This document shows, one piece after another, positions 3,001-6,000 of a stretch of 9,055 nucleotides of DNA. The stretch's first letter is position 1; each line of letters starts with the position of its first letter. The DNA comes from a virus. Taxonomy: Duplodnaviria > Heunggongvirae > Uroviricota > Caudoviricetes. Position numbers: made by a program. The DNA lies in the IMG/VR virus record IMGVR_UViG_2690316273_000018, positions 1 to 9,055 of that record, one strand, 5' to 3'.

Positions 3001-6000
3001 GCCATGTCGGAGGATGACGTCCGGCCGGAGGCAATGCGTCGTTTTGAACTGATGGTGGAAGAAGCGGCGCGTCACGCAGAGGAGGCGAAGAAGAATGCCG
3101 GAGAGGCGGAGACATCAGCGAGGAATGCCGGCATATCAGCCAGTCAGGCAGAAGAGAGCGCTGCAAATGCTGACACTTCAGCAGGGGATGCATCGGAGTC
3201 AGCCCGGCAGGCGGCAGAAAGTGCAGCCGCTGCAAAGCAGTCAGAGGAGGCGTCCTCGTCCTCGGCCTCTGCGGCCGCTCAAAAAGCCAGTGAGTCATCA
3301 CAAAGTGCAGCAGATGCTGAATTGTCAAGAAAGACGGCAGAAAGTGCAGCCGGTAATGCAGCCAGGGATGCAACGACCGCAACAGAAAAAGCCCGGGAGT
3401 CAGCAGAAAGCGCACAGTCAGCGGAACAAAGCAGGATAGCGGCGGAAGAGGCCGTAAACCGAATCCCCACCGTGGTGGGACCTCCCGGGCCAAAGGGGGA
3501 ACAGGGGCCCGCGGGTCCTCAGGGGCCGAAGGGTGATAAGGGAGAGCGCGGTGACACCGGCCCTGTCGGGGCAACCGGCGAACGGGGACCGGCAGGTGAT
3601 GCTGGTCCGGCAGGCCCGCAGGGGCCGAAAGGTGACATGGGAGAGCGGGGAGAGACCGGTCTGACGGGAAATGCAGGTCCACAGGGTCCAAAGGGAGATA
3701 CCGGTGCGGCAGGCCCGGCAGGCCCACAGGGACCGAAAGGAGAAACAGGTGCGGCTGGCCCGGTGGGGGCAACCGGACCTCAGGGACCGAAGGGCGACCC
3801 GGGGGAGACACAAATNGTGCTGACCGGAAGTGATGACGGTCGCCACAGCAACACGTCTCTGGCGTGGGGGGCTGGCGTGCAGTTTAACCCGACCGAATCC
3901 GTGGCCATTGATATTGCTTATGAAGGCTCCGGCAGTGGCGACTGGCGCACTGACGGTTTCATCGTGGGTGTCGGTTATAAGTTCTGATTAGCCAGGTAAC
4001 ACAGTGTTATGACAGCCCGCCGGTTCAGGCGGGCTTTTTTGTGGGGTGAATATGGCAGTAAAGATTTCAGGTGTACTGAAAGACGGCACAGGAAAACCGG
4101 TAGAGAACTGCACCATTCAACTGAAAGCCAGACGGACCAGCAGCACGGTGGTGGTGAACACGGTGGCCTCTGAAAATCCGGATGAAGCCGGTCGTTACAG
4201 CATGGACGTTGAGTACGGTCAGTACAGCGTCATTCTGTTGGTGGAAGGATTCCCGCCGTCACATGCCGGGACCATCACCGTGTATGAAGATTCTCAACCC
4301 GGTACGCTGAATGATTTTCTCGGTGCCATGTCGGAGGATGACGTCCGGCCGGAGGCACTGCGCCGTTTTGAACTGATGGTGGAAGAGGTGGCGCGTCACG
4401 CTGAGGAGGCGAAGAAGAATGCCGGAGAGGCGGAGACGTCAGCGAGGAATGCCGGCATATCAGCCAGTCAGGCAGAAGAGAGCGCTGCAAATGCTGACAC
4501 TTCAGCAGGGGATGCATCGGAGTCAGCCCGGCAGGCGGCAGAAAGTGCAGCCGCTGCAAAGCAGTCAGAGGAGGCGTCCTCGTCCTCGGCCTCTGCGGCC
4601 GCTCAAAAAGCCAGTGAGTCATCACAAAGTGCAGCAGATGCTGAATTGTCAAGAAAGACGGCAGAAAGTGCAGCCGGTAATGCAGCCAGGGATGCAACGA
4701 CCGCAACAGAAAAAGCCCGGGAGTCAGCAGAAAGCGCACAGTCAGCGGAACAAAGCAGGATAGCGGCGGAAGAGGCCGTAAACCGAATCCCCACCGTGGT
4801 GGGACCTCCCGGGCCAAAGGGGGAACAGGGGCCCGCGGNNNNNNNNNNNAGTTTAACCCGACCGAATCCGTGGCCATTGATATTGCTTATGAAGGCTCCG
4901 GCAGTGGCGACTGGCGCACTGACGGTTTCATCGTGGGTGTCGGTTATAAGTTCTGATTAGCCAGGTAACACAGTGTTATGACAGCCCGCCGGTTCAGGCG
5001 GGCTTTTTTGTGGGGTGAATATGGCAGTAAAGATTTCAGGTGTACTGAAAGACGGCACAGGAAAACCGGTAGAGAACTGCACCATTCAACTGAAAGCCAG
5101 ACGGACCAGCAGCACGGTGGTGGTGAACACGGTGGCCTCTGAAAATCCGGATGAAGCCGGTCGTTACAGCATGGACGTTGAGTACGGTCAGTACAGCGTC
5201 ATTCTGTTGGTGGAAGGATTCCCGCCGTCACATGCCGGGACCATCACCGTGTATGAAGATTCTCAACCCGGTACGCTGAATGATTTTCTCGGTGCCATGT
5301 CGGAGGATGACGTCCGGCCGGAGGCACTGCGCCGTTTTGAACTGATGGTGGAAGAGGTGGCGCGTCACGCTGAGGAGGCGAAGAAGAATGCCGGAGAGGC
5401 GGAGACGTCAGCGAGGAATGCCGGCATATCAGCCAGTCAGGCAGAAGAGAGCGCTGCAAATGCTGACACTTCAGCAGGGGAGGCATCGGAGTCAGCCCGG
5501 CAGGCGGCAGAAAGTGCAGCCTCAGCAAAGCAGTCAGAGGATGCGTCCTCGTCCTCGGCTTCTGCGGCCGCTCAAAAAGCCAGTGAGTCATCACAAAGTG
5601 CAGCAGAAGCTGAATTGTCAAGAAAGACGGCAGAAAGTGCAGCCGGTAATGCAGCCAGGGATGCAACGACCGCAACAGAAAAAGCCCGGGAGTCAGCAGA
5701 AAGCGCACAGTCAGCGGAACAAAGCAGGATAGCGGCGGAAGAGGCCGTAAACCGAATCCCCACCGTGGTGGGACCTCCCGGGCCAAAGGGGGAACAGGGG
5801 CCCGCGGGTCCTCAGGGGCCGAAGGGTGATAAGGGAGAGCGCGGTGACACCGGCCCTGTCGGGGCAACCGGCGAACGGGGACCGGCAGGTGATGCTGGTC
5901 CGGCAGGCCCGCAGGGGCCGAAAGGTGACAGGGGAGAGCGGGGAGAGACCGGTCTGACGGGAAATGCAGGTCCACAGGGTCCAAAGGGAGATACCGGTGC

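Follow-up and report, generated by a model that had tools for sequence, protein, structure and literature searches.

A mosaic stf copy within an apparent tail-fibre gene triplication at the end of a draft Escherichia coli scaffold

Introduction

Does a lambdoid prophage region of a draft E. coli genome hold three side-tail-fibre (stf) genes in tandem, the middle one a recombinant of its two neighbours, or was the array made by the assembly? The stretch of DNA analysed here (the window, 9,055 nt) corresponds to positions 3-9057 of the draft WGS scaffold CYEU01000012.1 (161,715 bp; assembly GCA_001284625.1) and sits at the extreme end of that scaffold, which starts inside the tail-tip gene J. 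An earlier note on the window had described the second of its three stf copies as a mosaic of the other two, and had offered two origins for it: gene conversion between fibre-gene paralogues, or a consensus made chimeric by the collapse of a repeat. A true tandem would keep a small stock of tail-fibre variants within one locus, available for changes of host range.

Block-wise mosaicism is a long-known property of lambdoid phage genomes. PMC4587872, which cites Johansen et al. 2001, also bears on it, and the similarity of lambdoid prophages to one another is known to make E. coli drafts hard to assemble (PMC4587872). The pipeline of Velvet, SSPACE and GapFiller marks its joins with Ns and has been described as greedy and apt to join sequences falsely (PMC5320598). 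GapFiller extends the edges of a gap one base at a time, using 30-mers, a majority vote and a 29-nt overlap; the edges are extended independently, and where the extensions fail to meet, or the size does not fit, the gap stays open (PMC3446322). Gaps that stay open mostly concern repeats (PMC5320598, PMC3446322).

Materials and methods

The comparison set consisted of 5,426 finished E. coli genomes. Queries across the two junctions of the apparent array were made with the Ns removed, and the first junction was scored as present where at least 80% of the query was covered at one place. The stf copies were compared in an ungapped DNA register in which a copy-2 coordinate p corresponds to p-1324 in copy 1 and to p+969 in copy 3. 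We found no paper on assembly GCA_001284625.1, and its assembly method is our inference.

Results

The window contains only two stretches of Ns, a single one at 3816 and eleven at 4839-4849, and we read the sequence around them as three separate pieces (Table 1). Piece A (1-3815) comprises J, a first lom gene (lom-a) and stf to where its collagen repeats end; piece B (3817-4838) the tail of a second lom allele (lom-b) and the 5' 790 nt of stf; and piece C (4850-9055) the lom-b tail once more, a full stf, the tail-fibre C-terminal-domain gene (fibre-C), nleB2 and the truncated nleC and nleH. J forms the unique left flank of piece A. Both lom-a and the fibre-C gene lie where lom and the fibre-C gene are annotated in two closely related finished loci, L003 and L004. 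The first 64 nt of piece B (3817-3880, in lom-b) cannot be aligned to the corresponding part of lom-a (2493-2556).

Of the three stf copies only the third has the collagen-like repeats and PF06820 C-terminus of a complete gene, between lom and the fibre-C gene, and its residues 1-133 match PF08400 (E = 3.3e-69). Copy 1, whose haplotype is also that of L004 and of L018, a prophage locus discussed below, breaks off at the boundary between collagen repeats and C-terminal domain (at GETQ) and lacks the latter. Copy 2 ends just past the start of its collagen-like sequence, at the eleven Ns, after which comes a lom fragment. The exact 437-aa copy-3 protein is encoded on at least 24 E. coli contigs, and each of the 10 loci compared for it has one stf between lom and the fibre-C gene. 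The annotated start of copy 3 is an ATG two codons after a GTG, the protein begun at the GTG having no exact database match.

Table 1. Features of the window, with coordinates in nt counted from its first base
Feature	Coordinates	Strand	Remarks
3' two-thirds of tail-tip gene J	1-1971	+	Pfam Ig_J, Ig_J_second, Phage_Tail_Tip, Ig_GpJ_C
lom-a, complete Ail/Lom outer-membrane protein gene, 207 aa	2040-2663	+	Pfam Ail_Lom, E = 9.5e-52
stf copy 1 (allele type 1), end of piece A	2728-3815	+	haplotype 1...1/111111
Single N, join of pieces A and B	3816	.	right side restarts inside a different lom allele
lom-b, second lom allele, last 171 nt; start of piece B	3817-3987	+	matches lom of other prophages in L001, L002, L016, L017
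stf copy 2, N-terminal domain and Ala/Ser-rich shaft only, cut by Ns	4052-4838	+	haplotype 3...3/111111
74-nt tract identical in 3/3 copies, containing the allele switch	4439-4512	+	flanking sites 4438 (copy-3-type) and 4513 (copy-1-type)
Run of 11 Ns, join of pieces B and C	4839-4849	.	flanks found only as separate pieces in finished genomes
lom-b again, last 111 nt; start of piece C	4850-4960	+	identical to 3881-3991; repeat family D1, 100%
stf copy 3, only complete side-tail-fibre gene, 437 aa	5021-6334	+	Pfam phage_tail_N + Collagen + Phage_fiber_C
fibre-C, tail-fibre C-terminal-domain gene after stf, 89 aa	6336-6605	+	Pfam PF06820, E = 9.9e-35
Low-GC effector cargo, unique right flank of piece C	6782-9055	+	GC down to about 0.34
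nleB2	6782-7762	+	Pfam SseK_NleB
nleC, truncated	7796-8086	+	Pfam Peptidase_M85, just 64/251 profile positions covered
nleH remnant	8480-9055	+	part of effector cargo

The mosaic pattern is present in the sequence. Comparison of the three copies over 3881-4838 gives 48 informative sites, which fall into two blocks: at all 42 sites between 3885 and 4438 copy 2 has the base of copy 3 against that of copy 1, and at all six that follow (4513, 4553, 4555, 4573, 4591 and 4639) the base of copy 1 against that of copy 3; the three copies do not differ at all over 4640-4838. At 4438 and 4513, 75 nt apart, copy 2 has G and T, copy 3 G and G, and copy 1 A and T. The chance that six minority sites would lie contiguously at one end is 2/C(48,6) = 1.6e-7. 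The change of allele is confined to the 74-nt tract in which all copies are identical, so that the earlier description, with copy-3 variants in the 5' part, copy-1 variants in the shaft and a switch at roughly 4440-4500, is borne out at the DNA level, and the peptides on which it relied (VENCT, RRTSST, SVILLV, LNDF, PEALRRF, EEVARH, AGDASES against AGEASES, and others) all occur in the translations. The copy-2 protein has no difference from copy 3 in the PF08400 domain, all four differences being in the shaft. In all, piece B shares 632 identical nt with piece C and 400 with piece A.

The junctions of the array give it a different aspect. Each N stretch lies precisely where one stf copy stops and the next lom fragment begins, and in the first 14 kb of the scaffold Ns occur at these two unit boundaries and nowhere else. 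Every unit boundary in this draft scaffold is therefore marked by Ns, as an artefact would have it, and at neither 3816 nor 4839-4849 is there the contiguous sequenced junction that a tandem array requires. The units are moreover of unequal length (1324 and 969 nt), since the two junctions do not cut stf and lom at the same places. The earlier note is silent on both N stretches; copy 2 ends at 4838 only because the sequence beyond is unknown. Translation through the joins yields an Stf::Lom fusion of 419 aa and another protein of 302 aa, both already listed in public protein collections as though genuine; an exact match to the Stf::Lom fusion is what ties the window to CYEU01000012.1.

Two simpler accounts of the breaks were considered and set aside. 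The N at 3816 is not a plain ambiguous base, as internal lom sequence lies to its right and the junction occurs in 0 of 5,426 finished genomes; that the reading frame continues through it into Lom has a chance of 1 in 3, and at the second junction the frame is not kept. Collagen tandem repeats are too modest to have caused the breaks, a 45-nt unit being present twice only. The ends of the pieces fit module boundaries better, piece A ending at the boundary between collagen and PF06820.

Comparison with the finished genomes resolves the three units into one. The junction between A and B is covered in none of the 5,426, and that between B and C has no contiguous copy among them, its query being found there just as two pieces about 835 bp apart, which is the normal order of lom followed by stf. 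Neither junction, with N as wildcard, has a match in a viral contig collection, nor has that between A and B in species-representative genomes. The arrangement and junctions that a tandem array would be expected to share with its finished relatives are thus not seen in them. The 9,055 bases of the window correspond to 6,762 bp in the closest finished genomes, the shortfall of 2293 being 1324 + 969, exactly two extra units, and the closest finished loci are annotated with J, lom, one stf, fibre-C, nleB2, nleC (partial), nleH (pseudogene) and nleF. A single stf is found in every related locus compared. The flank at 1-2556 is 100% identical, and that at 6109-9055 99.83% identical, to L003 and L004, and piece A matches the single-stf locus L004 (Z1323HEC0423) end to end at 99.95%, with 2 mismatches. 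On L004, piece A maps to 1501-5315 and piece C to 4077-8262; the two overlap by 1,239 bp and piece B maps inside the overlap, so that the pieces cover one locus repeatedly, the flanks being collinear once the extra pieces are removed.

The module to which piece B belongs is a multi-copy repeat with allelic variants. Full-length matches to piece B are found in 708 finished genomes, and the number of places per genome matching it ranges from 1 to 14 (median 2), with 8-13 in the best matches to piece B and 5-7 in the genomes closest to the window. Copy 2 (3881-4838) is identical over 958/958 bp, mosaic combination included, to the stf of L001 in the finished genome Z1323HEC0422, a different prophage with lom, stf, fibre-C, nleH, cif and espJ. 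The whole of piece B (1,022 nt) differs from L001 by one mismatch; the exact 1,022-nt sequence, with G at 3870, was not found in the finished genomes, one mismatch being the best match there. In a second genome, Z1323HEC0399, an nleA prophage (L017) carries the copy-2 combination with 2 differences and an nleB2 prophage (L018) the copy-1 type, such that copy-1-type and copy-2-type alleles lie about 255 kb apart on one chromosome, in separate prophages. This two-prophage layout is a direct model of the input that the draft assembler would have received.

The allele of piece B is uncommon among finished genomes, with one record at 99.9% and two at 99.8%, whereas records of other types number in the hundreds. 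The finished genomes closest in the flanks, 14EC007 and Z1323HEC0423, are absent from the 30 records that match piece B best (identities down to 99.7%) and for that reason probably lack the exact allele; nor are the flank-closest genomes among the 60 best for lom-b and the 5' block.

Discussion

The apparent triplication is almost certainly an artefact of scaffolding or gap filling and not a sequenced tandem array. The window would be the opening 9 kb of a draft scaffold built from short reads of an E. coli carrying LEE effectors, split by Ns into its three pieces. The lom-stf module would be present once in each lambdoid prophage, of which a genome holds several, in slightly different alleles, and the three pieces would overlap in this module; an assembler or scaffolder unable to merge the alleles may then have placed them end to end, creating a false triplication from a real locus with one stf. 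The most likely source of piece B is the stf of another prophage that this genome carries. The mosaic allele of piece B would then be natural, having arisen earlier in the E. coli population, where tail-fibre genes of different prophages recombined by homology, and not by conversion within the array. We infer both that the source strain carries the piece B allele in another prophage and which software made the joins. The array of tandem fibre genes with a recombinant copy in its middle is therefore not a real feature of this locus, nor is the pattern to be put down to gene conversion here.

A real tandem of three lom'-stf units behind J, in which copy 2 arose by gene conversion or unequal crossing-over and the Ns are small gaps, is very improbable. 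The order in which the scaffolder placed the pieces does imply some read-pair links between them, and a block-wise mosaic is the expected product of conversion between neighbouring paralogues; tandem-paralogue gene conversion would also resemble what is seen here in the clean switch within a perfectly identical tract. Such conversion requires contiguous paralogues, and this the finished genomes contradict: no contiguous copy of a junction occurs in them, every related locus compared has one stf, and removal of two units restores perfect collinearity with them. Both junctions fall exactly at unsequenced positions and at non-homologous points, with units of unequal length, and a real tandem would leave copies 1 and 2 truncated and joined to pieces of lom. 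The first of the origins proposed in the earlier note, gene conversion between fibre-gene paralogues, consequently loses its tandem premise to the N-run junctions, the draft state of the scaffold and the single-stf relatives, and keeps its force as recombination between prophage alleles at the level of the population.

A closer competitor shares the scaffolding artefact and departs from the account above over piece B, which would be an assembly chimera in a genome holding just a copy-1-type and a copy-3-type allele, in different prophages. The alleles would have been swapped inside 4439-4512, either during a greedy k-mer walk or when the repeat was resolved, and no molecule would carry the combination. 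The switch does lie in a tract identical in all copies, and its 74 nt, exceeding the 29-nt overlap of GapFiller (PMC3446322), are long enough for a change of allele in such a walk; SSPACE and GapFiller are described as greedy and prone to false joins, and joins are written as Ns (PMC5320598). The extents of identity that piece B shares with C and with A are those expected of a sequence put together again from one pool of reads, the exact combination is seldom met among the finished genomes, and the flank-closest of these are not among the best matches to it. The identity of copy 2 to L001 is no proof against a chimera and was rejected as such, since any splice of a copy-3 5' block to a copy-1 shaft inside 4439-4512 gives the same sequence; copy 2 is that combination by construction, and the identity is therefore compatible with a chimera. 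Piece B, however, is not a mere splice, since it contains 64 nt of lom-b (3817-3880) that A and C both lack. With alleles mixed 1:1, a majority vote at a ratio of 0.7 would be expected to halt at variant sites, at most one of B and C can follow the majority through the shaft, and the combination occurs naturally in two finished genomes (L001 and, near-identical, L017), while the use of Velvet, SSPACE and GapFiller for this assembly is itself only presumed. About 550 nt of sequence specific to the copy-3 type occurs in both B and C, which suggests that the type-3 5' block is present twice or more in the source genome. We regard the chimera as possible though doubtful, and incline slightly towards the scaffolding artefact with piece B as a real allele of another prophage. 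Of the second origin proposed earlier, a chimeric consensus from a collapsed repeat, it holds that an assembly problem in a multi-copy repeat made the apparent array, but the mosaic need not be a chimera, its haplotype being present in a finished genome.

That such an allele can arise without an assembler is in keeping with the variety among the finished genomes, in which each of the four pairings of 5' block with shaft patch is found. In L003 type 1 gives way to type 3 between the equivalents of sites 4192 and 4210; the shaft pattern is 311113 in L002 and L016 and 111113 in L019, and L005, L006, L008 and L009 contain small type-1 patches. These pairings and shaft patterns show that recombination among the stf alleles is pervasive in the population. 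The underlying biology, the shuffling of stf alleles in blocks among lambdoid prophages, is already known. What the locus adds is a caution, namely that a draft scaffold which strings together alleles of a multi-copy module mimics a fibre-gene triplication with a "recombinant" middle copy.

In its form the array resembles mis-scaffolded or gap-filled repeats of short-read drafts, such as those from Velvet, SSPACE and GapFiller, with overlapping pieces 94-100% alike placed in series, separated by Ns, at a scaffold edge and in a multi-copy prophage region; for GCA_001284625.1 both the software and the exact route to the artefact are presumed. In its content the window matches the stf/stfR region of EPEC and EHEC lambdoid prophages (PF08400, collagen-like repeats and PF06820, in the order J-lom-stf-fibreC with T3SS effector cargo) in gene order, Pfam domains and near-identical sequence. 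There is no biological difference from lambdoid prophage stf, only the apparent threefold tandem, which is unsupported. The likeness extends to K-12, in which stfR of the Rac prophage is about 96% identical to the first 585 nt of piece B, comprising the lom-b tail and the 5' end of stf.

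Recombinant stf alleles in finished genomes

The single stf gene at the nleB2 locus of E. coli 14EC007, a finished genome among the two closest to the window, is itself mosaic, carrying the variants of window copy 1 (type 1) through the site matching window 5161 and those of copy 3 (type 3) from 5179, in flanks 99.83-100% identical to those of the window. In contrast, the stf of its sister locus in Z1323HEC0423 is type 1 over its whole length, and the true stf phase of the nleB2 prophage in the source strain is therefore not readable from the draft. At least two prophages with differing recombinant stf alleles reside within one finished genome in both Z1323HEC0422 and Z1323HEC0399, the latter pair being an nleA and an nleB2 prophage. 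As the shaft patterns 111111, 111113, 311113 and 333333 (types at six sites, copy-2 coordinates 4513-4639) are all present among the loci fetched, comparison of these sequences shows that the six SNPs, lying within 127 nt of the stf shaft, are shuffled at fine scale.

Two products in the public protein collection, each with this contig as its only source, exist because gene callers ran through the N joins between contig pieces, and both are annotation artefacts (Table).

Tail-fibre 3' end and effector cargo

The PF06820 domain is duplicated at the stf 3' end, giving rise to the DNA repeat D5, and its start is the exact end point of the first contig piece. Beyond it, G+C falls sharply from ~0.6 in the phage tail genes to ~0.34 in the effector cargo, marking the boundary between structural genes and cargo. 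Both nleC and nleH are decayed in the window and annotated as pseudogenes in the two finished relatives. The copies of a 45-nt direct repeat lie 3' of tail-fibre gene remnants, annotated in 14EC007, that stand ahead of nleB2 and nleH; effector cassettes may have been exchanged repeatedly at this tail-fibre end of the prophage and left the repeat as a scar.

Table. Features of the window and their coordinates
Feature	Window position	Description
Stf::Lom-tail fusion	2728-3987	419 aa; called across N join
Read-through product	4052-4960	302 aa; called across N join
Stf C-terminus	6107-6334	aa 363-426; PF06820 match
Gene directly after stf	6336-6605	89 aa; PF06820 match
Repeat D5	6116-6156 / 6426-6466	71% identity
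G+C fall	~6600-6800	
45-nt direct repeat	6641-6685 / 8334-8378	89% identity
nleC	7796-8086	shortened to 96 aa; 64/251 Pfam profile positions covered
nleH reading frame	8480-9055	N-terminus lacking; early stop
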